From: a virus
IMG/VR virus record: IMGVR_UViG_3300025087_000038
Span: 1-64,000 of that record
Length of the DNA stretch: 64,000 bases
Reading direction: 5' to 3' (one strand)
Below are positions 2 to 54,368 of the stretch, piece by piece. Every line of letters begins with the position of its first letter. Position 1 is the first letter of the stretch. The notes beneath the pieces were generated by a model. It worked only from the letters and a program-made list of their open reading frames with translations, searched no databases and was not told the DNA's origin. Both the position numbers and the translations under genes were made by a program.

Positions 2-829
2 GTAAACGTTTTTGGTGATGGTAGTGAGAGAACAGTAACTTATGACCCCAAAAAACATCTTTTTGTAGAAGATGTTTACAGTAGAGGTTTAGAAGGAGAA
101 GGAACAACGATGTATACTCCTGAAGAGTATTTTGAATACTATAAAGAAGATATAGAAGAAGAAGATTCTGACGGATTAACAGCAAAAAGAAAAGCGCAGA
201 AAGGTTTAAAAGTCTACAACGAAAGAGGAACACCTAGTGAAATAGAAGACTCTATTGACAAAGGTATAGACGTTGGAACCTATAGAACAACGGGTAGAAA
301 AGCTCAAGAAGAGGTGAACCTTACGACGCCACCTTTAGCAAATGAAATAGTAGATGAAATACTAAGTGAACTAAAAGAACAACTTAATGCTAACGCTGAT
401 GCTTTAAATTCCTTAGAAGTTCGTAAGTATCTATTGAAAAAAGTTAGAACATTAGCTCAAGGCCCGAGTAGAAAAGCTCAACTCAGTGAAACCGACCCAA
501 TGCAAATGTCAACTGGAGCACCAACAAGCGAAATAGAAAAAATAAAAATGACAAGAAAGGAAGTAACTGAACCAATAAATGTTATAATGACCCCAAGCAT
601 AGAACGAAGTAAAGGCGCTGGAACTCCAATAGACCCAACCTACTTAGCAGAACAAATAGTAAGAGGATTACGGTATAGTCATTACCATACCGCACAGGAA
701 GGGTTTAACCATATAATCAGGGCCACTAAAGACATAACAAAGGAACAGGTTGGAGAGTTAAAAGAACTAATGAGTCAGTTAGGCTACAGCGTAGAAGAAC
801 AAAAAGAAGGAATAGTAAAAACAGGATAA
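2..829 (+). CDS. Modular virion/internal head protein, 5'-truncated by the window edge
   Basis: The frame is open from base 2 into the annotated ATG at 110, so the gene probably starts upstream of the window. Three RKAQ motifs separate short acidic segments. Confidence 0.6.
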   Translation, partial: VNVFGDGSERTVTYDPKKHLFVEDVYSRGLEGEGTTMYTPEEYFEYYKEDIEEEDSDGLTAKRKAQKGLKVYNERGTPSEIEDSIDKGIDVGTYRTTGRKAQEEVNLTTPPLANEIVDEILSELKEQLNANADALNSLEVRKYLLKKVRTLAQGPSRKAQLSETDPMQMSTGAPTSEIEKIKMTRKEVTEPINVIMTPSIERSKGAGTPIDPTYLAEQIVRGLRYSHYHTAQEGFNHIIRATKDITKEQVGELKELMSQLGYSVEEQKEGIVKTG

Positions 830-9107: not shown

Positions 9108-9150
9108 ATAAAATTGAAGGGTTAAACTATTATCTATATGAGAGGATTAT

Positions 9151-9294
9151 ATGAAAAGAGTTATTAGTGGAAAAATTAAAGGCATTTTAAAGACGAAGAG
9201 CTGTCTAAACTGCGGTAAGGATATAGATTTATACGGGATAGACCTTTGCGCTGAATGTAAAAAGGGTATAGAAAAAAGTGGAAAACAAAGATAG
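9151..9294 (+). CDS. Small zinc-finger peptide (47 aa)
   Basis: SD GAGG; CLNC and CAEC motifs (manual translation). Confidence 0.5.
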   Translation: MKRVISGKIKGILKTKSCLNCGKDIDLYGIDLCAECKKGIEKSGKQR

Positions 9295-9535
9295 AGGCAA
9301 AATACCAGCGCAAATTGTAGATATTTGCCGAAACCGCCTTGATGAACTAAGTTTGGTGCAATTTGGAACAGTAGCTTTTGACATTCGTTTTGGTAATGTG
9401 TATAGATTACGAACCCAGAACGATATTTTGGTAGATAAAGATAAGTTACCAAGAGACGTTTTAGAAGGTAAAACCAAGGAAGAATTAGTAGATTTGATAA
9501 TCGGAAAGCGGAAGGAAGAAAAAGGAGGAACCTAA
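9278..9535 (+). CDS. Hypothetical protein
   Basis: 85-aa ORF within the operon. Confidence 0.5.
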   Translation: MENKDRGKIPAQIVDICRNRLDELSLVQFGTVAFDIRFGNVYRLRTQNDILVDKDKLPRDVLEGKTKEELVDLIIGKRKEEKGGT

Positions 9536-9537
9536 AA

Positions 9538-9825
9538 ATGCGTTATACGTGTACAAGTTGTAATGTGGATGTAGAGTTAGGAAAAGATAATGAGAAAAGA
9601 TGCCCTAGATGCGGTTATAAAAGTTATATGAAAGAAGCAAAAGAAAAAGTAGTGGCAAAAGTAATATCTAAAAAAGATATAGTGTATACAGCAGTCCAAT
9701 GTGAGAACTGCGCTGTTGTCTGGGATAAAAGTTTATCAGAAAAGTGCCCAGTATGCGGAAAGATAGGCGGTAAATTTATAAATAAAAAAGAAGCATTGAA
9801 AAAAGAGGAGTTAGTAACAGTATAA
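9538..9825 (+). CDS. Double zinc-ribbon protein
   Basis: Four CxxC motifs; SD AGGAGG. Confidence 0.7.
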   Translation: MRYTCTSCNVDVELGKDNEKRCPRCGYKSYMKEAKEKVVAKVISKKDIVYTAVQCENCAVVWDKSLSEKCPVCGKIGGKFINKKEALKKEELVTV

Positions 9826-12800: not shown

Positions 12801-13976
12801 GATTTGGACTTAAACTTCATAGAAGGAAAAAGAAAGTCAGAGTCAAAGTGGATAGTAAGAGCAAAAAAGAAACCAGTATTTTCAGTTAACCTAAAACAAG
12901 CGTTTGATACAGATAGTTGGAGTAAAAACTGGAAGTTCTTTAGTTCAAAAGAGTATGGAAAAGAGTTGCGGGAAGCAATAAAGGAGAAAGGTATTAAGCG
13001 AACAATAGTTGAAGAGTTTCCAGCAGGGGTAACTAGATTAAGTCAAGTTGAACTTCCCCCAGAAACGCCAACTACTCAACCAGTTGGACAGGCCCCTCAA
13101 GCTGTTTTACCGCCACAGTCTCAGCAACAGATTTTGGAAGGGCCAAAAGCAAAAGGGTCATTCGTGAAATTCTTAACAAATATGACAGCTCCGTTGATTG
13201 CATTAGATACTCCAGTATTTGATGTAGATAGTATTACGACAGAGTTAACCTCAACTTTTGGTGATGAAGCAGCAACTAATCAGTTTAAAGGTGAACTAGA
13301 AGCAAAGGTTCAAAGCTTAAAAGAACCAAAAGAGGGAGTGCCGGCTCAACCAATAACTACTGCAAAGAGTATTAAAGCGCTTAAGAAAGCGTTATTTGAA
13401 GAGTTCCAAAAGGTAAAGCCAACTATAAGTGAAGATGAAGTATGGTTAATTTATAGTGCTGGAGACTCTGAATTTAAGAGAGAACTTTTAAAAGGTGGAG
13501 AAAGAATAACGGCTCTAAAGGGGGAACTCAATAAAGAAATTAGTGCTCATAAGAGAACTCAAGCATCTTTAGAAAACCTTTTAGAGGAGAGAAGCCTTAG
13601 ATTTAAAGCTCGTAAAGCAGTTGAGTTAGTAGATAGAGAAATTATTGTCGGGTTAGTTGATACAAAAGAAACTTTAATGGCAAAAGGCGAAAAAGATGAA
13701 AGAGTAGCAACAAAGACAGCAAAAGAAATCTACGAGCATGAAGTAGATGAGTTAGTAGCTATGGACGATAAAACGTTTAATAGTTTTACTAAGAAAGTAG
13801 AAGCAATGTTAAAAGAAACAAAAATGACAAAAAGAGCTTCAATAGGAAAAGTAATAGGGTCATTAGTAGATGCAACAACTGATGATGAACCTAGAGCAAG
13901 TATAGAAGGAAGCAAAAGTACAACTCTTGAGACCGTATGGTCAAGGCCACCTATAGTAAATGAGAATGAGAAATAA
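9825..13976 (+). CDS. Prohead protease fused to a scaffold region, containing an intein
   Basis: Protease-like N-terminal domain (PNENGDYF, NHD, VSMGC); long acidic/coiled-coil C-terminal part; lies between portal and capsid genes. Confidence 0.75.
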   Translation: MFYRTAQLKIKDKDLYLCGKDETKVCNCCGTQSCSFRQAAKRLIAVDPNFLYVIVSGLHGDSPNENGDYFEWDKNHFDWEKEVFGYEGELLNKRNGAYVYETWRGKPNLTNHDEKSVVGHIEDVFHILEEKSIDKLLAVNRRTQPLLVGDIEKGLINEVSMGCLVASSICSKCKHIAHDEQEWCFLPGTKVLMADYTLKNIETVCEGEHVITHKGNKKKVLKPMSRSYEGEILVITSVGDSGKYPLRLTPNHEIFTLQSNGSIGSGTVGFILAKEIQINNELLVPVVREQKTNLEVTEEESRLLGYYVSEGSIGNKNYKTTRQLSFSFNKSEAAYVTEVASLCTKLFNRQICVYENPKSSGVEIRTSVPLNVASKLQYIGGEYAKQKQLVGEFVEQPLDIVKAFLDTYNNGDGWKNAKGFSFETASEQLAYQLVILGRRFGGSVYWNKLPNTHSPTNPVKDLTIYRVNIKPLINVVRYLSYDGIGYFKRLVRDIKSERYSGLVYNLEVEDDNSYIANDVAVHNCDHLKYHKGRLDDEGSKIYEINKGVVGQECSWITMGQAADPKATKKKIVAEKEEEMSTFKINPIAGKRSVEAGVSSETSVPAGGIKNAIAYESDMSRFTGMKKEKGMAGVSPEMQTKLALLAKIPVDKLIGLVDDKDVKEILAQTMTSSTVAEEKETIATEIEKLEKEIVKPVVAESLGNVKEEIAKRKEILAGLYKKEEAMKGTNAVRRISAEIIRLEDEVTELEKQEPAVATKGRTMNSFRDVDVSKIDEFKRLYDWDQFDDLWQKAVEKALTIIDEKDYKVFQEVLQDIPTSAAEDITTPNALARYLFNYVERYKRTPLLEEASMDINALAKMIKETVRAEMKSLKAQFGEEKDKDKDLTELPEPALEKPKVDKKEIPKETKDEPSDESLELEDKKEEKPATPKKELQKDLEEGANIESGKAKEIVTDIEKIVKDEVKKTKLSKPEEKEVVEMEPKEETEEPLMDEDLDLNFIEGKRKSESKWIVRAKKKPVFSVNLKQAFDTDSWSKNWKFFSSKEYGKELREAIKEKGIKRTIVEEFPAGVTRLSQVELPPETPTTQPVGQAPQAVLPPQSQQQILEGPKAKGSFVKFLTNMTAPLIALDTPVFDVDSITTELTSTFGDEAATNQFKGELEAKVQSLKEPKEGVPAQPITTAKSIKALKKALFEEFQKVKPTISEDEVWLIYSAGDSEFKRELLKGGERITALKGELNKEISAHKRTQASLENLLEERSLRFKARKAVELVDREIIVGLVDTKETLMAKGEKDERVATKTAKEIYEHEVDELVAMDDKTFNSFTKKVEAMLKETKMTKRASIGKVIGSLVDATTDDEPRASIEGSKSTTLETVWSRPPIVNENEK
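10374..11393 (+). mobile_element. Intein with LAGLIDADG endonuclease in the prohead protease (340 aa)
   Basis: CFLPGTKVLM...LTPNHEI...LLGYYVSEG...YNNGDG...VYNLEVEDDNSYIANDVAVHN followed by Cys. Confidence 0.93.
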
Positions 13977-14495: not shown

Positions 14496-14641
14496 CTTCA
14501 AATTTAATTAAATAGGTAGGTGATAAATTTTACATGGCAAATAAGAAAAAGAAAAAGGGTAAGTAACAAGAATCAAAAACAGGGAAGGTGATAGGATGAA
14601 AAGTCAAAACTATATTATAAACAAGGAGGTGAAATAACAAT

Positions 14642-15100
14642 ATGGCAATAATGAAAATATTGCATGGTGGTAGAATACGAATGGCATTTGATGTTCCTGC
14701 AGACCCAACAAGTGGTACAACTCGTGCTGCTGCTGAATTTTGGACCAAGGGTGATGTAGGCCAACTTCAGACTGATGGGATAGTAAAATCAGCTACAGCT
14801 GTGAATGGCGCAGTATTTGGACCTCTTTATGAGACTCGTACTGAGGACGTAAATCCAGGACTATTAACAGATGAGTGCGCTGGAAGCGGAAAGGTAACTA
14901 TGATATTAGACCCGGCTGTTGTTGAGACAGATCAGTATGCTTCTGGACTGAAGAACTGGGAAGAGAATCAGAGTGTATATACCAATACAAGTGGAAAATT
15001 GACCAACGTTGATGGTGGTTCAGCTACTAAACTTGGTATGTGCTTAACACCAATACAATCTGACGGAACATTTAAATATTTGTTTAGTCCACAATATTAA
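14642..15100 (+). CDS. Capsid decoration/cement protein
   Basis: 152 aa immediately upstream of the capsid gene; SGKVT and VYTNTSGKLT motifs typical of head decoration proteins. Confidence 0.7.
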   Translation: MAIMKILHGGRIRMAFDVPADPTSGTTRAAAEFWTKGDVGQLQTDGIVKSATAVNGAVFGPLYETRTEDVNPGLLTDECAGSGKVTMILDPAVVETDQYASGLKNWEENQSVYTNTSGKLTNVDGGSATKLGMCLTPIQSDGTFKYLFSPQY

Positions 15101-15176
15101 AATATAAGAGAGAAAGGCCTATTCTTTAGCCAAAAAGTAAAGAAAAGTAAAAAGTTAAATATAGGAGGTGAAATGT

Positions 15177-18100
15177 ATGGAAAGAACCGAAGCACAGAAA
15201 GAGTACGCAGTGGCAGCTGCACTTCGAACTGCGTCGGGTCGGAATGAAATTGGTCAAACTATGTTGGAGCCTTTTAAGGAGGGCAGAGATTACGTAGGAA
15301 TGGGTCGTAAGTGTTTCTACGTGGATAAACTCCCAACAGCAGCACCGATTCGTACAGAGTCGCACTTAAGTAGTAGTAAGTGAAAAATTTGGCTATATGC
15401 TGGAAACTCTTTAGAACCTTAAATACAAAACAGTAACTTGGAAAAGTAGACTGAAAGTGAAAATTTTAAGGATTAGACAATCAGCAGGGAAGTTTAAGAG
15501 AACCTTAAACCCCTCAGAGACTACACGCCAAACTAAAAGTTATGGATGAAATAAAACTAAAAAATACATTGCAAGAATACCATTTATTTAAAGGGGTATT
15601 TGATAGCCTCTTTAAACGATTACTGGCAAACTGGGATAGATTGGAACTAAATTGGATACGAAACGAGATAACCATCCTTTCTAGACTGTTTGCAGAATCC
15701 AAAAAATGTTTAGAGGGTATAGATATTGAAACCACTCTGGAACAGAAAAAGTTAATCAATTTAGGCACTTTAAAAAAGAAATGGGAAAAACAATTTAGAC
15801 ACCCTTGGGAAAAATTTTTAGAAAAATGGCGCCCAAAACTTTTTAGATGATATAGTCCGAGCATGTATAGCGATATACAGAAGCAAACAGAAATGATTTG
15901 CTCTTAACTAAAAAAGTTAAAGTAACAGAACTGGTGGTATGACAAGGACCCGCAGTTTAGTGCAGTAGTGATTAGCCAAAGAGGTAGTGTTCCATACGAG
16001 CGGATTGAAGGAACCAGGGTGGAACTCGAACCGATTCCAATAGCGGTTTGGGTGAAGATCCCGGTTTTAGAGATAGCAGTTCGTAGGTTCAATATTCTTG
16101 ACCGTGAAAAATCTCACTTAATGTTTGCGGTCAAAAAACTTAACCATATGCTGGAACAACCGAGTATTCAACTTAGCCAAAGAGCAAAATTAAGTTGATG
16201 CGGTCAATCAGCAGGAAAGGATGGCAAAAATGGCAAAAAGATCGTTCAAATTTGAGGCTTGGACTCCTGAATTAGCTTACGTGATAGGAGCTTATTTAGG
16301 CGATGGGTGGTTGGATTTAAACCAAAGATATGGATTTGGAATAGGATCTATTGATAAAGAATTCATTGAAAAGGTTAAATCATGTTTAACTACTTTCATC
16401 AAAGGCAATTTAAATGAGATTAAGCAGTCAGAATGGAATAAGCAACAGTCTTTTAAAAATAACACAGTTTGGAAGTTGACCTTTACTTGTAAAGACTTTG
16501 TTATTTGGTTAAAGGATTCTTGTAGTGGCAAAGAGCATGTTCCTATAAATTTTCCTAAAGATAATATACTAATTACTACAGAGTTAATCAATGGTTTTAT
16601 GGATGCAGAGGGGTACATTAGTATGAATAGAAATAGGTATGGAAAGTTACGTTTTCAAATAGGAGTGTGTTGTTGTGATTCTTGCATATTTGGTATTATT
16701 GACTTATGTAGTCAATTAAATCTGTTACCTTGGAAGTGTTACAAACATATTACCAAGAGTGGTAGAGTATCGAATGACTTTAGATTTCACGTTAATCAAA
16801 TTGCCAAAAGTCCTATAAATTTTTCAATAGAAAGAAAGCAGAAACGGTTAGTAGTGCTTAGGAAGGCCATCTTCCTCAACGACTTTACGTTAAGTGATAA
16901 AGATTTAGAATCTTTATCAATGATAAAGTCTGGTCTTATTGGCGACGATAAGAGACGATTAGAAATAAGTCGTCCATTATATGCTGGGCAAGGATATAAG
17001 TTTACGTCTTCTACAGGTAAAGAAGCAGTAAAAATTCAGAAAGAAAAAGGGTTGCTTAAATCTTTTAATGACTTTGATAGATGTAATGCAGCTCAACGTA
17101 GAATGGAACTTGGACAAATAAAGAAGAGTAAATTACTTCCTAGCTAAATATAGTGTAACAAGTAACAGAACAGGTGAGAGCGCGCGCGGAAATGGCTGAG
17201 GCAGAAGATACAAAGATTCTGTCAGCTATTAGCACCGCAACGACTACAGCAACCGGTCGGAATACTACGCAAACAAGTACTGGTGGTTTAACAAGAAATT
17301 GTTTAGGCGGCTTGTTTGCAGAAATTGAACAACATGACGCTCCAGTGGCTAACATCATAATGCATCCGATTAACTATAAAGACATTCGCGCATGGGCAAA
17401 GGATAACCAAAAAATTTGTCCTTTTAAAACTTAGCTATATGCAAAGACGCCCTAACAAGGGTAATTTGCAGGGAAGACTCACACAAAATGGATAAAAGAA
17501 TAATAGCAAATAGAAAAAGAATAAAGAAAACTTACGAGGAACTATATGGTATAGAAAGAGCTTTACAGATTAAAGCAAAACAATCAAAAGCTCAGAAAGG
17601 TGTTCCCGATGGGCCACAGTCAGCAGAAACTATAAGGAAAAAGCGTTTAATTATGAAGAAATCTGCTAAAAGAGGTTCTGAACACTATAGATACAATTAC
17701 CATTATACAACAGATGAAAAGAAACAGCTTTCTCAAAGATCTACATTTGGATTGTTGAAGTACTACTCAAAAAATTCGGGTAGTCGAATAACGGGTGGGC
17801 ATTGGAGTAAGGATGGAAGACGGGTAGACCTTGACAACCAATATTTCAGAAGTACTTGGGAAGCTAACGTAGCTAGACTGTTAAACTTTTTAAAAGTCTT
17901 TTGGATTTATGAACCTGGAAGGTTTTCTTTATACGATGAGAATGACGATTTAATTTGCACATACAAACCAGATTTCTTTTTACCAGGGTGTAAGGTATAC
18001 CTTGAAGTAACGGGCCGAACTTTTGGTAACAAGTTAAGAAAACTAGACTTGTTTAGTAAAAAGTATAATTTGGTTGTTATTGATCAAGGAATGTATGTTT

Positions 18101-19890
18101 ACTTAAAAGAATGGATAAGTAATGTTATTCCCTTTTGGGAGAACCCTCAGAGACTATACGCTAAGCATTTAGAGATGAATGATGACATAGTCCAAACTGC
18201 ATGTATAGATAAAGATGCAGACCTAAACAGAAATGATTTAGGCGCTACTTAAACTAGTAGTTATGTAAGTAATAGATTGGAATTTGACCCCGTTAATAAC
18301 ATAGCGGCGCTAAATTAGAAATGATTTAGTGGAAAAGTTGACTATATCGGTGGAACTCCTAGCAATAGGACAATACCGAGGAAAGATTTTAAAGGTAAAA
18401 CTTTAAAAAATCCGTAGAGACTGTACGTCAACCTCCTTTGAACTTAAAGGAGATGATACAGGCCGAGCTGTTTGGTAACAAACAGAGTTCAACAGAAATG
18501 GTTGAACCCTTAACTATAAAAAGTTAAGAGTAACAAAACTGTACAAAACGCGAAATGATAAAGACTGGTTACATCGGAGATATTTGGAATTCACAACTGC
18601 GTATAACAAAGAAAGCAACATCCGGTACTGTGTATGCTTTGGCTGACCCTGAGTTCATGGGTGTAATATCCGTTAGGATCGATTAAAAATGAAAATGTTA
18701 ATAGAGAATATTGGAAAAATCATTTTCAGAAAATAGTCGCTTTTATCAGTAATGATAATTGCAAAACCAACTATATCGGTGAAACTCCTGAAAAGGACAA
18801 TACCGAGGGAAGTCTTAGTGACCCCGTAGAGACTGCACGTTGGATTCCTATTAATAGGAATATGATACAGTCCAATCTGAATAGTAATATTCAGAGTTTA
18901 CCAGAAATGAGTAAACCCCAACTAAATTAGTTGGAGTAATAAAAATGTTAGACCAAATGGATGCGCCAGATCAAGAGAACTTATGTCTTGGTTGGATATT
19001 CTATGAGTAAACAAACTTGCTCATATAAAACCTAGCTATATCGGTGGAACTCCTGCGAAGCAGGACAATACCGAGGGAAGAGAGGATATGGACACAAATA
19101 GAAAAGCATTGGCTTATGTAATTGGTGTATATTTGGGTGATGGTTGGATAACTAAGCAAACTATTAATGGTAATGATTACTACACTTTTGGGGTGGCTTC
19201 AATAGACAAAGAGTTTATTGAAAGAGCAAAATCTCAAATGGAAGTGATATTATCTAGATGATCCATACCCGAAGTAAAACACTGGTTAAATAACATGTAT
19301 GCTTTTCAAATAAGTGGTTCACCCTTTTTTAAAGAATTAAAAGAAGAAACTTTTAATAAATTAGTAATTCCTAATTGGATCTGTGAATTAGATCCGTTTT
19401 CAGAGGAACTAACAGAATTCTTTAGAGGGGCTATTGATAGTGAAGGGTGTATTACACGAGGAAATTGTGCAATGGATTTTGGGTTTATAATGAATGTTAA
19501 AGGAGATTGGTTTTTACCATTTGTATCTCTTTTAAAAAACAGGTTCAAAACCCTACCATTAACAAAAAGAAAAGATGGTATTTGGAATATAGAAAAACCG
19601 CTTTATTCCTTTTTACAGGCGCATATACCATTGACTATTAATAGAAAAAGGGACCGAATAAAAGAGTATCTATATAAGGTAAGTCATAGACCTCTCCCCG
19701 TAGAGACTATACGCTGGGCATCTTTAGAATATGGTAAAGATGATGATATAGTCCGAGCTGCATAGTAATATGCAGAGGATATTAGAAATAGATATCCCCC
19801 TAGAAATAGGAGCAACAAACTGACGTAGGAATTGCCGTAATCATAGCCCAAGGCACAGCAAAAGCTACTATTACTGGTAGTATAGCATAG
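15177..19890 (+). CDS. Major capsid protein (HK97-like fold), 7 exons: 15177-15349, 15934-16105, 17168-17404, 18280-18293, 18542-18683, 18948-19008, 19823-19890; 288 aa
   Basis: SD AGGAGG at 15163. Exons total 867 nt and join in one frame: MERTEAQ...LPTAAPM/WYDKDP...RRFNILDR/EQVRARAEM...IMHP...WAKD/EFDPV/TKREMIKTG...ADPEFMGVISVRID/LDQMDAPD...GWIFYEY/VGIAVII...SIA*. The gene follows protease and decoration genes and is followed by a hairpin. Confidence 0.88.
15350..15933 (+). mobile_element. Group I intron 1 in the capsid gene (584 nt)
   Basis: P1 cgat/gtcg with a U-G pair at 15349; P3 tttggc/gccaaa; P4 tgctg/cagca; P7 gagacta/tagtcc; ends aactG. Confidence 0.9.
15542..15850 (+). CDS. Intron 1-encoded ORF of unknown function
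   Basis: 102-aa ORF in the P8 loop; no nuclease motif recognised. Confidence 0.5.
   Translation: MDEIKLKNTLQEYHLFKGVFDSLFKRLLANWDRLELNWIRNEITILSRLFAESKKCLEGIDIETTLEQKKLINLGTLKKKWEKQFRHPWEKFLEKWRPKLFR
16106..17167 (+). mobile_element. Group I intron 2 in the capsid gene (1062 nt; 3' end appears to be A)
   Basis: P1 ttgaccgt/gcggtcaa; P3 cttaac/gttaag; P7 acgacttt/aaagtct; P10 tgttt/gaaca. Confidence 0.85.
16221..17147 (+). CDS. LAGLIDADG homing endonuclease (intron 2)
   Basis: Two motifs, LAYVIGAYLGDG and LINGFMDAEG; the ORF reads on through the ribozyme core. Confidence 0.88.
   Translation: MAKMAKRSFKFEAWTPELAYVIGAYLGDGWLDLNQRYGFGIGSIDKEFIEKVKSCLTTFIKGNLNEIKQSEWNKQQSFKNNTVWKLTFTCKDFVIWLKDSCSGKEHVPINFPKDNILITTELINGFMDAEGYISMNRNRYGKLRFQIGVCCCDSCIFGIIDLCSQLNLLPWKCYKHITKSGRVSNDFRFHVNQIAKSPINFSIERKQKRLVVLRKAIFLNDFTLSDKDLESLSMIKSGLIGDDKRRLEISRPLYAGQGYKFTSSTGKEAVKIQKEKGLLKSFNDFDRCNAAQRRMELGQIKKSKLLPS
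17405..18279 (+). mobile_element. Group I intron 3 in the capsid gene (875 nt)
   Basis: P1 aaaggat/gtccttt; P10 aattt/gaatt; P3 cttagc/gctaag; P7 gagacta/tagtcc; ends gattG. Confidence 0.9.
17488..18252 (+). CDS. PD-(D/E)XK-type homing endonuclease (intron 3)
   Basis: Basic NUMOD-like N-terminus; FRSTWEANVAR...YEP...YKPDFFL...YLEVTG. Confidence 0.78.
   Translation: MDKRIIANRKRIKKTYEELYGIERALQIKAKQSKAQKGVPDGPQSAETIRKKRLIMKKSAKRGSEHYRYNYHYTTDEKKQLSQRSTFGLLKYYSKNSGSRITGGHWSKDGRRVDLDNQYFRSTWEANVARLLNFLKVFWIYEPGRFSLYDENDDLICTYKPDFFLPGCKVYLEVTGRTFGNKLRKLDLFSKKYNLVVIDQGMYVYLKEWISNVIPFWENPQRLYAKHLEMNDDIVQTACIDKDADLNRNDLGAT
18294..18541 (+). mobile_element. Group I intron 4 in the capsid gene (248 nt, no ORF)
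   Basis: P1 ccgt/gcgg; P3 gttgac/gtcaac; P4 tcggt/accga; P7 gagactgt/acaggcc; ends aactG. Confidence 0.88.
18684..18947 (+). mobile_element. Group I intron 5 in the capsid gene (264 nt, no ORF)
   Basis: P1 cgat/gtcg; P3 ccaac/gttgg; P7 gagactg/cagtcc; ends aaatG. Confidence 0.88.
19009..19822 (+). mobile_element. Group I intron 6 in the capsid gene (814 nt)
   Basis: P1 tatgagt/gctcata; P3 cctagc/gctggg; P7 gagacta/tagtcc; ends aactG. Confidence 0.9.
19088..19765 (+). pseudogene. LAGLIDADG homing endonuclease (intron 6) broken by one in-frame TGA at 19259-19261
   Basis: ATG 19088 gives MDTNRKALAYVIGVYLGDGW...ILSR*SIPE..., in frame with ORF 19295, which carries the second motif FFRGAIDSEG. 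Confidence 0.85.
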
Positions 19891-19900
19891 CACTAAGTCT

Positions 19901-19928
19901 TAGGAGGGGTAGACAACTATCCCTCCTA
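19901..19928 (+). terminator. Stable hairpin after the capsid gene (terminator or 3' stabiliser)
   Basis: taggaggggtag-acaa-ctatccctccta; no clear U-tract. Confidence 0.55.
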
Positions 19929-20134
19929 GGATTACTTATCTACCAAGAGTAGAAAAAGGAACGGGGGCACGAAAATGCCCCCTGAAGTTTAAAGGTAATG
20001 GTGATTGAGACAGTCGTAAGTGTGCGATTGGTAGAGCAACCGCTCTCTCGGCCATTTAATTAAATAAGGTTTTAAACATCGTTAAAAAGGTATCTCCAAT
20101 ACCAAAAATAAGGAAAACCGATAGGAGGAATAAA

Positions 20135-20680
20135 ATGGACAAAATAGTAAGAGACGGCTTTGATTCAGCCGAAAAAGAATTAAAGGAAAAACAGATCGCA
20201 GAAGTCAAGAAAATAGTCTTAAAGACACTAGAAAAAATAGAAGGAAAAACTAAAGAACGCGATAAGCTAAGTGAAGAGATAAGACTATTAAAAATGGACA
20301 TAGACGATTTAAAAGAAGGAAAAATAGAAAGAATTGTTGAGAGACAGGAGAAGGATCCAAAGGCAAAAGAAGTAGCAGTAGTAATAATTATCAAGGAAAA
20401 AGAGGTAAGAGAGCTAAGTCCTTGGTATTGGCCATATCAGATTATATGGCAATATCCGGTATATTCTACTCCAGGATTAACGTTTACAGGTGGAACATTT
20501 GGAAGTTATGCAACCAGTAATGCAACAATTGGATTGGCAGAAGGGGCTACAATAACAGGTACTTCAGGCGGTGGCTCTATAACTTTAACATCCGACAATT
20601 GTTGTATAACCAATTCAACGGCAAAAGATGGGGTAGTAGGAAGTTACACAATAGAAAATAAGGTAATACACTTAAGGTAA
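20135..20680 (+). CDS. Hypothetical protein (coiled coil plus Thr/Gly-rich tail)
   Basis: SD AGGAGG; 181 aa. Confidence 0.6.
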   Translation: MDKIVRDGFDSAEKELKEKQIAEVKKIVLKTLEKIEGKTKERDKLSEEIRLLKMDIDDLKEGKIERIVERQEKDPKAKEVAVVIIIKEKEVRELSPWYWPYQIIWQYPVYSTPGLTFTGGTFGSYATSNATIGLAEGATITGTSGGGSITLTSDNCCITNSTAKDGVVGSYTIENKVIHLR

Positions 20681-21372
20681 GTAGAGTATTGGAGATATCC
20701 TTTTATGGGTGAATTAATAAACTTATTTTGGAAGAAAGAAGCGCGAAAATATACCGAATTTAATCCTAAAGACTTCCAGTCTGGGAATGAAGAAGCAGAT
20801 AAGCATAATTTATTGTTTCATTTATCAGTGTTAGATAGCATACTATTAGAGTATGATCCTGAAGATCCTCCAATCAACTCAAAAGAAGAGATAGTTACAG
20901 AAATAGTTGAAGCAATGCAGTACTATAAAGAACGCTTTAACGAAGTTCCAGAATATGAGGGATTTACAACATCGATTACTGTTAAAACAAAAGAAGATAT
21001 GGAAAAAGTATTTCCTAAAATAGAAGAATCTTTTTTAGATATAGTAGAAGAAGGAAATACTGCTCAAGTATCCTTAAGTGCTATAACTACATATCTTGGT
21101 GGTAGAATACAAGAAGGAAAGACTTTTACTAATTCTAAAGGAAAAGTCTTTAAAGTGCTTAAGGTAGATTCTAAAATTCAAAAAGCAACAGTAAAAAGAA
21201 TAGCCCAACGGAGTCAATAAACAATGGCATGTTGTATAACCAATTCAACGGCAAAAGATGGGGTAGTAGGAAGTTACACAATAGAAAATAAGGTAATACA
21301 CTTAAGGTAAGTAGAGTATTGGAGATATCCTTTTATGGGTGAATTAATAAACTTATTTTGGAAGAAAGAAGC
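20600..21372 (+). repeat. 143-bp identical direct repeat (20600-20742 and 21230-21372)
   Basis: Covers the 3' end of ORF 20135, the spacer and SD, and the codons for MGELINLFWKKEA. Confidence 0.95.
20705..21220 (+). CDS. INLFWKK-leader protein 1
   Basis: MGELINLFWKKEAR followed by a unique acidic body and an SH3-like end. Confidence 0.7.
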   Translation: MGELINLFWKKEARKYTEFNPKDFQSGNEEADKHNLLFHLSVLDSILLEYDPEDPPINSKEEIVTEIVEAMQYYKERFNEVPEYEGFTTSITVKTKEDMEKVFPKIEESFLDIVEEGNTAQVSLSAITTYLGGRIQEGKTFTNSKGKVFKVLKVDSKIQKATVKRIAQRSQ

Positions 21373-21694
21373 ACAATTAGGGAAGGTTATAGATTTTGTT
21401 GGCCCGGCACAAGATGTACCTAAAATTCTGTTAGACTACGATGTTGTAAGCGTTAAGGGTTTCCCTGCTAGCGGAACATTTAAAGCTGTAGAACAAGCAG
21501 AAAACTGGTTAGTGGAGAATGGTTATGGCCTTGGACCTATGCAGAGGGATGCCCCTAGGGGTATTGCCAAAGACGTTGATTATATTGCTAAATGGAGAAA
21601 TATCTCTCCAGACGAGTATTCTAGATTAGACGGCGTTATGTTACCAGCACCTGAATTTCGAGAGGGCGGGGCTACAATACTATTTTTTAGGTAA
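21335..21694 (+). CDS. INLFWKK-leader protein 2
   Basis: MGELINLFWKKEAQ followed by an unrelated body. Confidence 0.7.
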   Translation: MGELINLFWKKEAQLGKVIDFVGPAQDVPKILLDYDVVSVKGFPASGTFKAVEQAENWLVENGYGLGPMQRDAPRGIAKDVDYIAKWRNISPDEYSRLDGVMLPAPEFREGGATILFFR

Positions 21695-21711
21695 GAGAAG
21701 AGGAATACTAA

Positions 21712-22671
21712 ATGCCATTAAGTAACTATTTACGAATACGAGAAGATTACATATACAATGGATCAAAAGCAAACTTTGACTTGTATGGAACCGCAAGTAC
21801 CGGACATACAATAACAGTAACAAACCCGTCTGGAACAACTGTAGATACATTTACTATGACTACGGATAACAATGGAATAGCAACCACTGAACGGTCAGTA
21901 GGTGCATCAACTTGGGGAACAGCAATAGGGACCTATACCGGAAAAGTAACTATAGGGGCGACTGAATATTCTGATAATGCTACATATTCATATAAGGAAG
22001 TACTTATAAACCACGGACTAAATACTTTATTTGATTTATTCCAGAATTTAGAGGTAAGGGATGAGGTAGGCGTATTAAACAGTGATAGAAGTCAAGCAAG
22101 GTTTACTTATGATAACTGGCAACGAAAATACGTTCCTCAGTTCTTTAAAAATGATACTACATTTTTAACTTTATGGACAGACATAGACATAGATCATGAA
22201 ACTGGAATAGCTTACCCTGGAACTACCGCACAAGGAGATGAAATAAGCTCTCAGTATAGATTTAAATATTTTACTGATGGGTACTGGGGCGATATTTTAG
22301 ACCTTGCAATAACGATGGGTAATGCGTTAAAACCCCACACAAGTTACAGTATCAATGATGCGCCCGCAGAGTGGGATGATTTACTCGTAATGTATTCATA
22401 CATAAAATCTTTAGAGAAATTATTACTTGATTTAAACTTGTGGCGGACACGGTTGATATTTCCAGACCCAACAGCCATGTACAATACGTTAACAAGTTTA
22501 TTGGCTGCTGCAAGAGCGGAGATGATAGAAATAAAAAAGCAAACAAAGAGACGTGGGGATACAAGTCCAAAAGTGGTAACCAGTTTTAAACAAAGTGTTC
22601 CTCGGAGTGTTAATGGTGTTAACTGGCGGTCCTACAGCATACTTGGTACGTTTGATGCTAATGGCAGTTAA
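21712..22671 (+). CDS. Putative head-tail adaptor/neck protein with an Ig-like N-terminus
   Basis: Located after the capsid gene; Thr-rich beta N-terminus and helical C-terminal half. Confidence 0.5.
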   Translation: MPLSNYLRIREDYIYNGSKANFDLYGTASTGHTITVTNPSGTTVDTFTMTTDNNGIATTERSVGASTWGTAIGTYTGKVTIGATEYSDNATYSYKEVLINHGLNTLFDLFQNLEVRDEVGVLNSDRSQARFTYDNWQRKYVPQFFKNDTTFLTLWTDIDIDHETGIAYPGTTAQGDEISSQYRFKYFTDGYWGDILDLAITMGNALKPHTSYSINDAPAEWDDLLVMYSYIKSLEKLLLDLNLWRTRLIFPDPTAMYNTLTSLLAAARAEMIEIKKQTKRRGDTSPKVVTSFKQSVPRSVNGVNWRSYSILGTFDANGS

Positions 22672-22680
22672 GGAGTAGAA

Positions 22681-23448
22681 ATGACAAAAGAGCACAGAGA
22701 TAAAATATCATTGGCTAATAAACTTTCTTGGATAAATAAACCAGAAAAAGAGAAAATGGAAAGAATCCAAAAGTTAAGCAGAATTACTAAACAATTATGG
22801 CAAGATCCGGAATATATTGAAAAAATGAAGTTACGATATCGCGGAACAGGCATGACTGGTAAAAGACATTCTGAAGAAACGAAAAGGCAAATTTCGGAAA
22901 GGAAGAAAGGTAATGTTCATTTAAGTACAGAATCACGTAGAAAAGTATCTGAATCATTAAAGAAAGCGTATACTTCTGGGAAAAGAACTTTAGGAATGAA
23001 AGGAAGAAAACACTCTTTAGAGATCCGAAAGAAAATGTCAGAATCTCAACTACGGGTTAGACAGTATCCAGAAGTAGTATTAAGGATAATAAAGGGGCAA
23101 CATAGAAAACCAAATAAACCTGAACTAGCATTACAGAACCTACTAAACAACCTTTTACCAGGAGAATATCATTATACAGGAGACGGAAAAATAATCATAG
23201 ATGGCAAATGTCCCGATTTTCTAAATATGAATGGACAAAAGAAACTAATAGAGTTATATGGAACATATTGGCACAAAGGCCAAGATCCACAAGACAGGAT
23301 AGCCTTATTTAAGAAGTTTAGTTTTGATACTTTAGTTGTTTGGGAAAATGAATTAAAAGATACAGAAACACTGAAAATCAAAATTTTAGAATTTCATAAT
23401 AAACCTCACGAAGAACCAGACAAAGTTTTACAGGAGATCTTAGTTTAG
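22681..23448 (+). CDS. Free-standing homing endonuclease (NUMOD3 repeats plus Vsr-like nuclease)
   Basis: GMTGKRHSEETK and GMKGRKHSLEIR repeats; PNKPE...CPDF...IELYGTYWH...VVWENE. Confidence 0.82.
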   Translation: MTKEHRDKISLANKLSWINKPEKEKMERIQKLSRITKQLWQDPEYIEKMKLRYRGTGMTGKRHSEETKRQISERKKGNVHLSTESRRKVSESLKKAYTSGKRTLGMKGRKHSLEIRKKMSESQLRVRQYPEVVLRIIKGQHRKPNKPELALQNLLNNLLPGEYHYTGDGKIIIDGKCPDFLNMNGQKKLIELYGTYWHKGQDPQDRIALFKKFSFDTLVVWENELKDTETLKIKILEFHNKPHEEPDKVLQEILV

Positions 23449-23476
23449 TGTCTAACGGCATAGATAAGGAGTAGCA

Positions 23477-23737
23477 ATGTCTTTAATAAATTTATTTTGG
23501 AAGAAAGAAGGTCAATTAGAAGAATTTAAAGTAGGGAGCAAAATAGTAGTAATAGAAGATAACGAATTTGATCCAAATTCTCCTAGTTCTGGAGATACTG
23601 GAAATGTGGTAGAGATAGATCCTATGGATGTGTTGATTAAAGTAAAATTTGATAGCTGGAAAAGTAAGAGCGGAAGTCCTTTTTGGCACATTAGTCCAAG
23701 TAGAATAAGAAAAATTTATACTAATGGAAGACATTAA
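23477..23737 (+). CDS. INLFWKK-leader protein 3 (SH3/KOW-like body)
   Basis: MSLINLFWKKEGQ, then FKVGSKIVVI...GDTGNVVEID...VKFD. Confidence 0.7.
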   Translation: MSLINLFWKKEGQLEEFKVGSKIVVIEDNEFDPNSPSSGDTGNVVEIDPMDVLIKVKFDSWKSKSGSPFWHISPSRIRKIYTNGRH

Positions 23738-24205
23738 ATGAGTTACGCAAATAGTGTTTCAGAAGTATTAAGGTGGGCAAGACAGCTCGTTGTCGGAACA
23801 GGAAAAGCAGACACTATGCAAAATCCAGATGCTCTTTTGTACATGTCCGATGCAGACGAAATAATAAATTCAATGTTAAGTCCAATATATGCAGTACCGT
23901 TAAACACAATTACAAGGGCGAGTAGACCCGATATTTATCCTGACCCAATACCATTAATAGCCAAACGTTTATCAGCAGGGTTGATGATAAAAAATGTGTA
24001 TACAGAAATAGAACCAAACGCTAGTGCAAGAGGAGAAGAAGAAAGAGCGCAAGCAATGGATATGCTTAGTGATTTTATAAGTGGGTTAGTAGGTGGAACC
24101 GCAAGATTAGCAGGGCAACGTTTAAAAAGCCGGAATCGATTTTTACCACCCGGAGTTTATCCAAATGAGTTGCCAGCTAAACCCGCAACGGTATTAGGAG
24201 TATAA
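23738..24205 (+). CDS. Head-tail connector protein (Mu gp36-like)
   Basis: MSYA...ADEIINSML...YAVPL...PIPLIAKRLSA pattern. Confidence 0.6.
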   Translation: MSYANSVSEVLRWARQLVVGTGKADTMQNPDALLYMSDADEIINSMLSPIYAVPLNTITRASRPDIYPDPIPLIAKRLSAGLMIKNVYTEIEPNASARGEEERAQAMDMLSDFISGLVGGTARLAGQRLKSRNRFLPPGVYPNELPAKPATVLGV

Positions 24206-24685
24206 ATGGTATCATTACAAAACGAAATTCTGAATAGTTTATGGAAATTATTAGATAACAACTTACAATATTTGACAAACAAGTTAACCGAATTTACAAG
24301 TTCACAGCCGATAACAAGGGTATGGAAAGGTGCAGCAGCGGTAATAGACAAATACCCAGCAATAAGGATAGTCCCTCAAGGACGAGATAGCGAATGGGGC
24401 GCAACAAGAAGCCAGGATGACACGTACCGTTTTTCCGTAGAATGTTTCATACGTACTACCGCACAACCGGAAATAGCACAGGAATGGATAGGCGCATTTG
24501 AAGCAGTAGTAATGAACTTATTATTGGAACCTGTAAACCTAACCTTAGATATAGGAAGTGGATTAAAAACTTATGATGGTTATGCCACAAGCGGAACAGC
24601 GCCAGAACGAACCGGAGAAGGAATTTATCAAGCGAATATTGATGTATGGTACAAAACGTGGCAAAGTCCAATAGCGGTTGCTTAA
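24206..24685 (+). CDS. Putative tail terminator/completion protein
   Basis: 159 aa with YPAIRI motif; upstream of the tail tube gene. Confidence 0.55.
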   Translation: MVSLQNEILNSLWKLLDNNLQYLTNKLTEFTSSQPITRVWKGAAAVIDKYPAIRIVPQGRDSEWGATRSQDDTYRFSVECFIRTTAQPEIAQEWIGAFEAVVMNLLLEPVNLTLDIGSGLKTYDGYATSGTAPERTGEGIYQANIDVWYKTWQSPIAVA

Positions 24686-24694
24686 AGGAGAAAA

Positions 24695-24949
24695 GTGATG
24701 TCTAACATAGTAGATTTATTTTGGAAAAAGAAGGCGCAAGAAGACTTTGAAGAAATAGAAGGCCCAAAACGAGAACGAAGGTTTCGAGCTTCAATTTACG
24801 TAGACGTATGGGTAATTGAAACAGACAATATAGAAAATGATAGAGAAGTAGCAAGAAAGGAAGTAGAAGAATACCAAAAAGGGATACCTAATTCGTATAT
24901 TGGAGATATAGGCTGGTTCAAAGGAATGACGTTAGATAGAGAAATATGA
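24695..24949 (+). CDS. INLFWKK-leader protein 4
   Basis: MSNIVDLFWKKKAQ followed by an unrelated body. Confidence 0.7.
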   Translation: MMSNIVDLFWKKKAQEDFEEIEGPKRERRFRASIYVDVWVIETDNIENDREVARKEVEEYQKGIPNSYIGDIGWFKGMTLDREI

Positions 24950-24950
24950 A

Positions 24951-25163
24951 ATGGATAAAAGTATCATTAACATATTTTACAAGGAACAAATGAAAAAGAA
25001 AGCAACTACTGACAAATATAAACTAAATAGACTAAAAGAAGAAATAAACAAAATAATAGAAGTAAGAGAACTAACTAAAGAGGATATGCTGAAATTTATG
25101 GAAAAATATGAAGTAGGAATGCACGATTTACAATTTATCATAAATAAAATAAAGGAGAAATAG
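24951..25163 (+). CDS. Leader-like small protein 5
   Basis: MDKSIINIFYKEQMKKKA. Confidence 0.55.
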   Translation: MDKSIINIFYKEQMKKKATTDKYKLNRLKEEINKIIEVRELTKEDMLKFMEKYEVGMHDLQFIINKIKEK

Positions 25164-25164
25164 T

Positions 25165-25956
25165 ATGCCGATTTTGTCCAATACTTTAATGGAAAATCTA
25201 AGTGACCGACTTGCAAAACAGGTGCAACTTATACTTGCCGGGATTAGGGATGCTAGAGTAATTGGTGGCGGGGAACACTTTGACCGAGTAACAACAGCCG
25301 ACGATTACGATGTGGAAAACGATTTTATAGATGATACGCATTCCTGGGACAAATATGTTAGTGGTCAGTACATATTTCCTGATATAACTGAATTAGCTGA
25401 TTATGTGAATGTGTTCAACACCCATGCTACAAATCAGGGAGCACCCGACTTAAACAGGTTCCTTCAGACATCTGGTATAGATGTAGCCGACTATTTTGCT
25501 GATGTTTATTATTGGATTAGAGGAAATAGACTTTCTGCATACAACGTATTTTATACTACCTCTTTAGATCCTATGGGTACTTTAGATGTAATTTCTTCGG
25601 GAATAGGAACTTTTACAGACGGTTATTCTTTATCAACAAACGGAACGGGAAATTATACGGGACGAGACGACTTAACAGCATTAAACACAGCCGCAGTAAA
25701 TCTTGAATGTTACGCTTCTGGAGTAGGTATCGGCGCAAATGGTTTAGGTGTAAACATAACTTGTAAAAAAGATGACAATACTACTGAGGTAAAAACAGTA
25801 ACTTTTGCAGCTAATGATCCCGTGTGGACAAGTAAAGATATAGGAACAAGTGTAAATAAATATATTGATATTACAAATATGGCTATTGCTACTGGAAGTA
25901 ACGCTAATGACAAAGTAATTGTAAAATCTAAAATATTAAGGGCAATAGCCCTTTAG
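25165..25956 (+). CDS. Virion structural protein (paralog A)
   Basis: Aligns by eye over its full length with 25966..26727 (SDRLxKQ, GGGxEHF, ITCKK, TEVKTV, C-terminal IAL). Confidence 0.7.
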   Translation: MPILSNTLMENLSDRLAKQVQLILAGIRDARVIGGGEHFDRVTTADDYDVENDFIDDTHSWDKYVSGQYIFPDITELADYVNVFNTHATNQGAPDLNRFLQTSGIDVADYFADVYYWIRGNRLSAYNVFYTTSLDPMGTLDVISSGIGTFTDGYSLSTNGTGNYTGRDDLTALNTAAVNLECYASGVGIGANGLGVNITCKKDDNTTEVKTVTFAANDPVWTSKDIGTSVNKYIDITNMAIATGSNANDKVIVKSKILRAIAL

Positions 25957-27129: not shown

Positions 27130-27960
27130 ATGCCGATGGTATGGCGCGGATATTTATCTTTGGGCGGCGTGGCTGTCCCATGTAACAGTACGGGATTAGA
27201 AATAGAACCAGGGTTTAAATTTAGTGATGATGCAATAACCTCAAAGGGGCATGTAATAAACTATGCCCAGGTACAAAATGCCTATCAAGGAAGTATAGAA
27301 TTTCCGTTAAATAGAGATTTTATGGCTACGTTATGGGCATGGGCAATTACATCTAGAGATACAAGCAAAACAGTTATTTTGTCCCCTGATGGAACAACTG
27401 CATATACATACCCCGAAGCAAGCGGTAAGTGTTTAGTTAAAACACTTACTATTACTGGGGCACAAAATGAGTATATAAAATGTTCACTTGATTTAGTAGC
27501 AACTGGACGTAGCGCTGCTGGAAGTGTGCCTACATATACAGCAACAAGTACTACTAATTTAAATTATACGCCAATACCATATTGGAAAACAAGTTTTATA
27601 TCAACTACTCCTACGGCATATGGCGGCGCAAGCGATGCAACACAGGTAGTATCTTGGAATGTATCAATAAACAATAACCAGTTTGTATTATATACTTTTG
27701 ATTTATCAAATGACCCGCATGATATACAACCGGGTTTAATGGATGTAACAGGAAATGTAGTATTGTATAATGCAAGCAGCACTCCTATACCAAGTGATGG
27801 CGGTAGCTCAACAGTAACTATAGATAATGATAGTTTAACACTTAACTATTTGGTATACACCAAATACGCTATGGAGATGTCTGGCCCGAACGTAAAAGCA
27901 ACGAGGTCATGCGATTTTAGATCAATAGGGAGTACATTAGTAGCTCCAATATACGAATAA
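27130..27960 (+). CDS. Major tail tube protein
   Basis: 276 aa, Thr/Ser-rich beta protein (VVSWNVSINN...GLMDVTGNV); followed by chaperone and tape measure genes. Confidence 0.7.
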   Translation: MPMVWRGYLSLGGVAVPCNSTGLEIEPGFKFSDDAITSKGHVINYAQVQNAYQGSIEFPLNRDFMATLWAWAITSRDTSKTVILSPDGTTAYTYPEASGKCLVKTLTITGAQNEYIKCSLDLVATGRSAAGSVPTYTATSTTNLNYTPIPYWKTSFISTTPTAYGGASDATQVVSWNVSINNNQFVLYTFDLSNDPHDIQPGLMDVTGNVVLYNASSTPIPSDGGSSTVTIDNDSLTLNYLVYTKYAMEMSGPNVKATRSCDFRSIGSTLVAPIYE

Positions 27961-54264: not shown

Positions 54265-54277
54265 TATTGAATATAAT

Positions 54278-54348
54278 TGCCCGGTAGTGTAGTGGTAACA
54301 CATCAGACTTTGGTTCTGGTATCTAAGGTTCGAACCCTTACTGGGCAG
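54278..54348 (+). tRNA. trnQ: tRNA-Gln(UUG), CCA not encoded
   Basis: Acceptor tgcccgg/ctgggca; D arm gtgt-agtggta-acac; anticodon arm tcaga-ctTTGgt-tctgg; T arm taagg-ttcgaac-cctta; followed by gag rather than cca. Confidence 0.92.
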
Positions 54349-54368
54349 AGAACAGAAAAGGGGGAAAT

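Follow-up and report, generated by a model that had tools for sequence, protein, structure and literature searches.

An N-terminal leader shared by unrelated small proteins in the head and neck region of a phage-G-related groundwater phage, a candidate portable capsid-targeting propeptide

The internal proteins Ip1-3 of phage T4 are described as having nothing in common but an N-terminal leader, which directs their packaging and is removed by gp21 (PMC9026906, PMC12373910). These leaders are 10-19 residues long, the residues for targeting coming first and those for processing last, and can load foreign proteins (PMC9026906, PMC12373910); Alt is another T4 protein with such a sequence. A leader of 13-14 residues opens several small open reading frames (ORFs) in the stretch of DNA analyzed here (the window), which covers the first 64 kb (positions 1 to 64,000) of the 127,007-bp linear virus record IMGVR_UViG_3300025087_000038, from an uncultivated groundwater phage. 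A common peptide, x-LINLFWKK-x-[AG]Q, was found at the start of ORFs 20705, 21335, 23477 and 24698 (named by their first position; Table 1), the most diverged copy being that of 24698 (IVDLFWKKKAQ). This leader is real, modular, restricted to the N-terminus and under protein-level selection. It may represent a T4-like capsid-targeting propeptide, cut after Gln by the prohead protease and spread between genes by recombination, an interpretation to which we give about an even chance.

Likeness to the T-even capsid-targeting sequence (CTS) lies in the short N-terminal leader borne by non-homologous small proteins, the T-even tagged set being described as variable between related phages (PMC9026906, PMC12373910). 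The phage studied here likewise encodes a prohead protease, and its leader ends in a motif that recurs in other head proteins. In contrast to T4, where gp21 is reported to cut a glutamyl-alanyl bond (PMC9026906), the leader runs from a hydrophobic into a basic stretch and closes with [AG]-Gln. We noticed no resemblance between it and anything described for T4, the genes concerned belong to the neck region, the closest relative of the head module is that of phage G, and no Pfam S77 match was obtained. Because of the missing S77 match, the phage-G-like head lineage and the differing leader and P1 residue, it would work like the T-even internal protein (Ip)/CTS system but does not belong to it by descent.

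Other systems share some of these properties. Encapsulin cargo-loading peptides are short terminal peptides that dock unrelated cargo inside an HK97-fold shell, but they are usually C-terminal and retained, and the shells are cellular nanocompartments, not virions. In Staphylococcus phage 80alpha, an N-terminal sequence of 13-14 residues on non-homologous proteins (capsid, scaffolding) is removed by the host cysteine protease Prp, which cuts F|A in a leader that mimics host L27 (PMC5744158), whereas the leader described here has no F|A and the phage record gave no Prp family match. In the giant phages SPN3US and phiKZ, where gp245 and gp175 are the respective proteases, a single protease motif terminates the N-terminal propeptides of many head proteins, and several motif copies per propeptide are possible (PMC10052503); ejection proteins have such propeptides too. 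Those propeptides differ in being long, in having no common short leader and in belonging to another phage lineage.

A hidden Markov model (HMM) of the leader was trained on 21335, 23477 and 24698 and run against the six-frame translation of the 127,007-bp genome. The three training copies scored 30.8, 30.6 and 30.5 bits and 20705 scored 22.2 bits, against 8.0 bits for the best match outside these four ORF starts in all six frames. The scan agreed with a preliminary description of the window, which had proposed it as a check and had placed four strong leaders at these ORFs; for the fourth, the ATG lies at 24698 and a GTG one codon 5', at 24695. Weaker versions that the same description had listed at 24951 and 833 found no support on their own, as 24951 scored 3.3 bits (rank 13 of the six-frame matches) and 833 was missing from the top 40 matches. 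The 8.0-bit match was an 85-aa ORF beyond the window (genome positions 84338-84595) that starts MFWKKKK behind a strong Shine-Dalgarno sequence, has no [AG]Q and is located away from the structural module.

Conservation was confined to the leader. Leader DNA was 73-91% identical between independent copies, compared with 18-42% over the 40 nt upstream and the 33 nt downstream, and the motif was always in frame, at codons 3-14. Similarity ended at the [AG]-Q, as had been described earlier, except that it ran one residue further (L) between 21335 and 23477 and that 20705 ends in EAR. The claim that the bodies are unrelated was borne out by BLASTP between all pairs of seven bodies (best E = 0.85). 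An AF2 model of the 21335 protein (9 aligned sequences, mean pLDDT 79) showed an alpha/beta body folded from about residue 15, with residues 1-11 below 50.

The four leaders amount to three independent ones, fewer than the four copies counted previously. ORFs 20705 and 21335 start within one perfect direct repeat of 143 nt (100% identity, spacing 630), so that their leaders derive from one event, and the identity includes 105 nt 5' of the ATG. Since the repeat ends inside the Ala codon, 20705 reads EAR where 21335 reads EAQ. The exact 20705 protein was present on 17 contigs (the longest of 157,013 nt), all of them with the perfect repeat, and a search for homologues of 20705 gave nothing beyond its own cluster at 99% identity. 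Among Logan contigs, the repeat formed a separate node with about twice the flanking depth (8.7 and 10.1 vs ~5), and contigs of runs X12 and X13 bridged its first copy. An assembly artefact as origin of the tandem repeat was rejected, given these 17 contigs and the bridged first copy.

In a strain variant (P0007, on a 65,952-nt contig) the junction lies 18 nt further on, which yields a complete leader (..KKEAQLGKVI) followed by the same body. The repeat and this variant show ongoing recombination or gene conversion between the 5' ends of 20705 and 21335, through which leaders have been exchanged. Contigs of runs X8, X10, X12 and X13 displayed no variant letters in 20000-25500, and one low-side joint (20190 to 20998, with 23 letters on the shorter side) was discarded as unreliable.

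Codon usage separated recent copying from older conservation. The leaders of 21335 and 23477 are a recent DNA copy, their codons agreeing at 9 of 10 degenerate positions where 5.1 would be expected from genome codon usage (P 0.009). Between 21335 and 24698, codons were identical at three of six same-residue positions, vs 3.19 expected (P 0.73). Of the nine nucleotide differences between these two leaders, four fell on first and five on third codon positions but none on a second, and the residue changes were conservative (L>I, I>V, N>D). The peptide, and not the DNA, was therefore kept over longer time, while DNA copying passes the tag on.

A related tag was found on G001 (L128-L132), an IMG/VR contig of 52,740 nt (40% complete). 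Its protein P0030, 61% identical to the 24698 body, starts MIKLSRKKESQ and aligns with the 24698 leader as I..L..[WR]KK[KE][AS]Q. The elements I..L..[WR]-K-K-x-[AS]-Q are kept, the hydrophobic patch differs and the next ten residues are missing. On this one orthologous body, the tag co-varies between related phages. At least 10 ORFs directly 3' of the small and large terminase genes of G001 begin with M-[IVN]-[KR]-[LI]-S/V-[RKL], and several of these leaders end in RLAQ, RLGQ, ESQ or QGQ. A DNA-level search for M-[IV]-K-L-S-x starting with ATG gave four matches on the forward strand and none on the reverse strand or in the control.

The tagged bodies of G001 were again unrelated to each other (best E 0.47), and the codons of their leaders varied (Ser AGT/TCA, Leu TTA/CTA, Arg CGA/AGA). 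One tagged protein (L128 13899-15263, 454 aa) ends in a 2H-phosphoesterase domain that exceeds the Pfam threshold of the anti-CBASS protein Acb1 (PF23474, 34.7 bits for a cut-off of 27; PF13563, E 4.3e-10), and another carries DUF192. Two leader-like copies close the Acb1-like ORF, immediately 5' of a homing endonuclease gene (L128 15266-15973), and the ORF after that again opens with a leader.

Like G001, phage G and a relative, the IMG/VR contig L127, have numerous unrelated ORFs that start with short basic-hydrophobic motifs and lie between terminase and capsid genes. In an analogous way to the leader, the motif [STK]-R-[LI]-x-[KAS]-x was found nine times each in phage G (L012, 1-33,835) and in L127 (108.6 kb), always on the coding strand. 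It was N-terminal in at least seven head-module proteins of phage G (gp5, 9, 10, 13, 17, 20, 38) and in at least six ORFs of L127, where it also marks an internal module boundary matching the N-terminus of phage G gp20. Two C-termini carry it too. These motifs differ from the leader of the window, being [ST]RLKK in phage G and M-I-K-L-S-R in G001. No description of the N-terminal motifs of phage G, L127 or G001 was found in the available text of PMC12484599, PMC8570332 and PMC13282480 or in the literature searched, and main-text passages of the first two hold nothing on the N-termini of gp5-gp38.

Table 1. Coordinates of leader ORFs, repeats and related head-module features in the window
Feature	Position	Strand	Remarks
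ORF, 171 aa	20705..21220	+	leader MGELINLFWKKEAR, codons 1-13 (20705-20743) copied from 21335; orphan body
ORF, 119 aa	21335..21694	+	leader MGELINLFWKKEAQ, residues 1-14; small alpha/beta body
ORF, 86 aa	23477..23737	+	leader MSLINLFWKKEGQ, residues 1-13; SH3-like repeat-type body
ORF, 83 aa	24698..24949	+	leader MSNIVDLFWKKKAQ, residues 1-14; body has an orthologue in phage G001
ORF, 70 aa	24951..25163	+	possible degenerate leader MDKSIINIFYKEQ; adjoins the cluster; membership uncertain
ORF, 94 aa	833..1117	+	proposed weak leader MPEDSITDLYTKRQ; without statistical support
Direct repeat, copy 1, 143 nt	20600..20742	+	last 81 nt of ORF 20135-20680, spacer, first 38 nt of leader ORF 20705
Direct repeat, copy 2, 143 nt	21230..21372	+	contains the start of ORF 21335
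Free-standing homing endonuclease gene	22681..23448	+	phrog_314 and phrog_655; directly 5' of leader ORF 23477
Protease-scaffold protein, 1383 aa	9825..13976	+	starts MFYRTAQ; prohead protease domain (~residues 63-184) fused to a long scaffold-like region
Modular protein, 852 aa	3561..6119	+	just 5' of the portal gene; KVKAQ at residue 32, four RKGQ; internal repeat units end ..RKGQ
ORF, 239 aa, head module	110..829	+	three RKAQ, TLAQ and HTAQ; candidate multiply processed protein; C-terminal part has a G001 homologue

Part of these data could be accommodated by an element acting at the nucleic-acid level, in which about 37 nt would serve translation initiation, form a regulatory RNA or be a target of recombination or homing endonucleases, the peptide likeness being a by-product. 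The 143 identical nt of 20705 and 21335, with their 105 nt 5' of the ATG, the shared codons of 21335 and 23477 and the homing endonuclease genes that abut leader genes both here and in G001 would all fit. Such an element would not explain that the codons of 24698 are randomized while its residues are kept, that the G001 leaders keep their residues with differing Ser, Leu and Arg codons, or that the motif is always in frame and the upstream DNA unconserved between independent copies. The preliminary description had named conservation at the DNA level alone as evidence against a protein tag. Purely nucleotide-level conservation holds only for the pairs 20705/21335 and 21335/23477, which are DNA copies, and fails for the 24698 and G001 leaders; an element of this kind is quite improbable. 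Around the endonuclease gene next to 23477, the strings formed by the ribosome-binding site and the ATG are near-identical (16/18 nt) between this gene (22666-22683) and the leader ORF (23462-23479), and the endonuclease gene was seemingly inserted before the leader gene, duplicating its start signals.

The bodies that follow the leader (69-157 aa) have different relatives. The small domain of 21335 has family members at 8 IMG/VR loci from unrelated phages (GC 29-72%), none with this leader. These loci share only the 21335-type protein with the phage of the window, two of them sharing one other small ORF as well, and the closest homologue (P0002, 52% identity) has a different basic-hydrophobic N-terminus. 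In an unrelated myovirus (L004), a 906-aa ORF beside the tail sheath gene (7784-10504) has modules split by six ESK[ILV]x[ED] linkers. Its last module, a homologue of the 21335 body, directly follows the sixth linker, and in the alignment this module starts where the leader of 21335 stops; this ORF resembles a polyprotein of small domains.

The 23477 body aligned to phrog_5785 from residue 14 (E 8e-6), and its relatives were only repeat units of longer proteins. Apart from this family, which is of unknown function, Pfam and PHROG searches with the bodies gave nothing over threshold. Foldseek with the 21335 model returned no structural neighbour (best E 0.22 in PDB and 0.09 in BFVD), and the ESM Atlas held no usable match for 21335 or 20705. 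Highly diverged paralogues of which only the N-terminus is still recognizable would be another origin for the leader, and duplication is often the source of tandem small phage genes. This relic of common ancestry is, however, hard to reconcile with bodies that show no pairwise similarity, vary in length and have distinct relatives (an SH3-like repeat domain for 23477, an alpha/beta family for 21335, a separate orthologue for 24698), and we consider it very improbable. The codon data and the differing body relatives together disfavour both this origin and a nucleic-acid-level element.

The end of the leader, [KR]-x-[AG]-Q, was enriched in the head module. Motif counts in those 37 ORFs whose start lies before 26 kb (8049 aa) and in the other 159 ORFs (32,083 aa) were compared with 200 composition-preserving shuffles. 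The head-module ORFs contained [KR]K[AG]Q 8 times (0.49 expected), [KR]x{1,2}[AG]Q 26 times (8.7 expected) and [AG]Q 48 times (32 expected), counts that none of the 200 shuffles reached. The other ORFs showed no excess (1 vs 1.26, 32 vs 28.4 and 110 vs 107, respectively). Within the first 40 residues, the motif was found in 8/37 head-module ORFs and in 3/159 others (Fisher P 8.7e-5), the protease-scaffold protein (MFYRTAQ) and the first piece of the capsid protein (ERTEAQ) being among the former. The terminal motif of the leader is specific to head-module proteins, a result that bears on motif sharing and not on cleavage. In SPN3US and phiKZ the P1 residue of the propeptides is Glu; the phage of the window departs from this giant-phage pattern, its recurrent motif ending in Gln.

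The motif had also been proposed to separate modules in the large proteins of the window. This was confirmed for the ORFs at 3561-6119 (four RKGQ) and 110-829 (three RKAQ), while the portal and the 1383-aa protein have no equally crisp form. In the 852-aa protein, residues 695-775 match residues 776-852 (score 311) and residues 94-157 match residues 343-402 (score 105, for a shuffle maximum of 45), and the repeats terminate in ..RKGQ or directly in front of a ..Q site.

The same enrichment fits equally well with a propeptide that is processed but delivers nothing, carried by virion-assembly or structural proteins, removed by a phage or host protease, and serving folding, timing or chaperoning. 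The position of the genes among neck genes would also be natural for such proteins. The bodies, however, are small, unrelated and strain-variable, one of them an orphan and one found in unrelated phages elsewhere, unlike core structural proteins, and a tagged protein of G001 has an Acb1-like enzyme domain. A Prp-type version would in addition lack both a Prp gene in the record and its F|A site. We regard processing without delivery as unlikely, though clearly worth keeping in mind.

The leader may also function without being cut, as a docking, localization or degradation signal (an amphipathic membrane anchor or an AAA+ protease recognition signal), with [AG]Q incidental. With its hydrophobic-aromatic stretch and the Lys-Lys behind it, the leader is similar to interfacial anchors and to N-terminal signals recognized by proteases. 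Phage G, moreover, is reported to encode ClpP and ClpX, both detected in particles (PMC12484599). An incidental ending would be at odds with the [AG]Q kept in three independent copies (SQ in the orthologue P0030) and with the enrichment of the same motif in head-module proteins only, and the record of the present phage has no ClpP. An uncleaved peptide appears improbable.

Taken as a capsid-targeting propeptide, the 13-14 residues would combine a patch of hydrophobic character, [LI]-[IV]-[ND]-L-F-W, with a basic processing motif, K-K-x-[AG]-Q. The patch would dock small accessory proteins on the head core or scaffold during prohead assembly, and the prohead protease, that is the N-terminal domain of ORF 9825-13976, would then cut after Gln, so that the cargo stays in the head without its leader until it is ejected together with the DNA. 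Further genes could gain the tag via recombination in leader DNA, possibly aided by neighbouring homing endonucleases. What we infer is that the leader is cut after Gln and binds some component of the head, and that the proteins are packaged, ejected and directed against host defence. The specificity of the leader, its protein-level selection, the head-specific motif, the presence of a protease, the tag on the G001 orthologue, the 21335 body in unrelated phages without this leader, the analogous motif of phage G and L127, recombination and the T4 precedent support the interpretation as a whole, leaving it about evenly balanced between true and false. The portable tag put forward in the preliminary description thus gained from the modularity of the leader, the protein-level conservation of 24698, the head-enriched end motif, the prohead protease, the leader on the G001 orthologue and on at least nine other unrelated ORFs (one of them Acb1-like), and the recombinational exchange. 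On the other side, two leaders of the four share one origin, and the weak versions found no support.

Several observations weigh against a capsid-targeting propeptide. The tagged genes lie among neck genes and do not adjoin the scaffold, and 20705 as it stands in the window ends in EAR, without the proposed P1 Gln. To our knowledge, no prohead protease cuts after Gln. Protease family searches gave no Pfam match on the N-extein and no PDB relative, and the whole record had no S78, S77 (PF03420, E <= 1) or ClpP family match. The 26-kb boundary of the enrichment set was chosen after seeing the map, and the counts hold one leader and one internal duplicate, without which [KR]K[AG]Q still occurs 6 times vs 0.49 expected. 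The low pLDDT of the modelled leader is weak evidence, since it is expected wherever few alignment rows cover a segment. The exact leader was found in no other phage. Its DNA pattern had 3 matches in IMG/VR, all internal or out of context, and at least 113 stretches in metagenome contigs (a scan that may omit near-identical records); of 80 loci inspected there, none opens a long ORF and about 35 were copies of one unrelated repeated sequence. Finally, the bodies are acidic (pI 4.5-6.1), whereas T4 internal proteins are described as basic (PMC9026906).

Extended to the phage-G-like clade, the idea becomes more tentative and is rather to be doubted than believed: fast-diverging, phage-specific tags may load dozens of accessory proteins into the head for injection, including counter-defence enzymes such as an Acb1-like cyclic-nucleotide phosphodiesterase, the tag being cut after Gln by the prohead protease and moved by recombination and homing endonucleases. 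The concept of such a leader is already known from the T-even Ip and capsid-targeting-sequence paradigm (PMC9026906, PMC12373910). What is new here is the Gln-ending tag, its apparent spread in phage-specific versions over the phage-G-like clade, the tagged Acb1-like enzyme in a relative, and a view of tag transfer at the nucleotide level, given by the 143-nt repeat, by the strain variant and by the homing endonuclease genes next to leader genes here and in G001. The repeat and the variant show how a tag may pass to a new gene. If the interpretation is true, capsid-targeting leaders would recur beyond T-even phages, in a remote lineage to which the cultivable megaphage G belongs. A motif scan of one genome could then list the injected proteins of uncultivated phages and flag counter-defence cargo such as the Acb1-like G001 protein, and a short tag with a protease of unusual Gln specificity would provide tools for loading phage heads.

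The head module surrounding the leader genes was distantly related to that of the Bacillus megaphage G. The portal (6396-9107) was 33-34% identical to phage G gp14 and contains an intein (about residues 273-650). The prohead protease domain of ORF 9825-13976 matched phrog_18299 (E 9.4e-9), with 33.6% identity to phage G gp19, and is split by intein domains (~residues 184-525). The major capsid gene is in pieces (15168-15383, 15968-16198 and 17174-17434) that match phage G gp27, split by group I introns and homing-endonuclease ORFs in a fragmented region (14600-20134). Capsid genes lie on one side and the tail tube gene (27130-27960; PF18906, E 3.4e-12) on the other, so the tagged genes sit between capsid and tail genes. 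The neck and tail setting proposed previously relies on this tail tube match and on a sub-threshold Mu gp36 match (E 0.03) for ORF 23738-24205. Single-protein locus searches of IMG/VR with 21712-22671, 24206-24685 and the tail tube protein returned no relatives.

The record has a GC content of 35.6%, nearly all genes on the + strand and a CheckV completeness of 76%. DNA of this phage was present in 15 groundwater and soil metagenome runs from 6 studies, with no RNA run listed among them. Selfish elements have invaded three essential head genes of this one phage (portal, protease and capsid). The inteins of the portal and of the prohead protease domain carry LAGLIDADG-type domains, the capsid region holds LAGLIDADG and other homing-endonuclease ORFs (16221-17147, 17488-18252 and 19088-19765), and two group I introns were matched in Rfam, at 18284-18485 (71.8 bits) and 18714-18894 (60.6 bits). 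The phage also encodes a tRNA-Gln (anticodon UUG) at 54277-54349. Beyond the window and far from the head module, ORF 97944-98327 matched a portion of the major capsid protein of phage G (33% identity, 76 aa) and could be a second capsid-like fragment or a paralogue.

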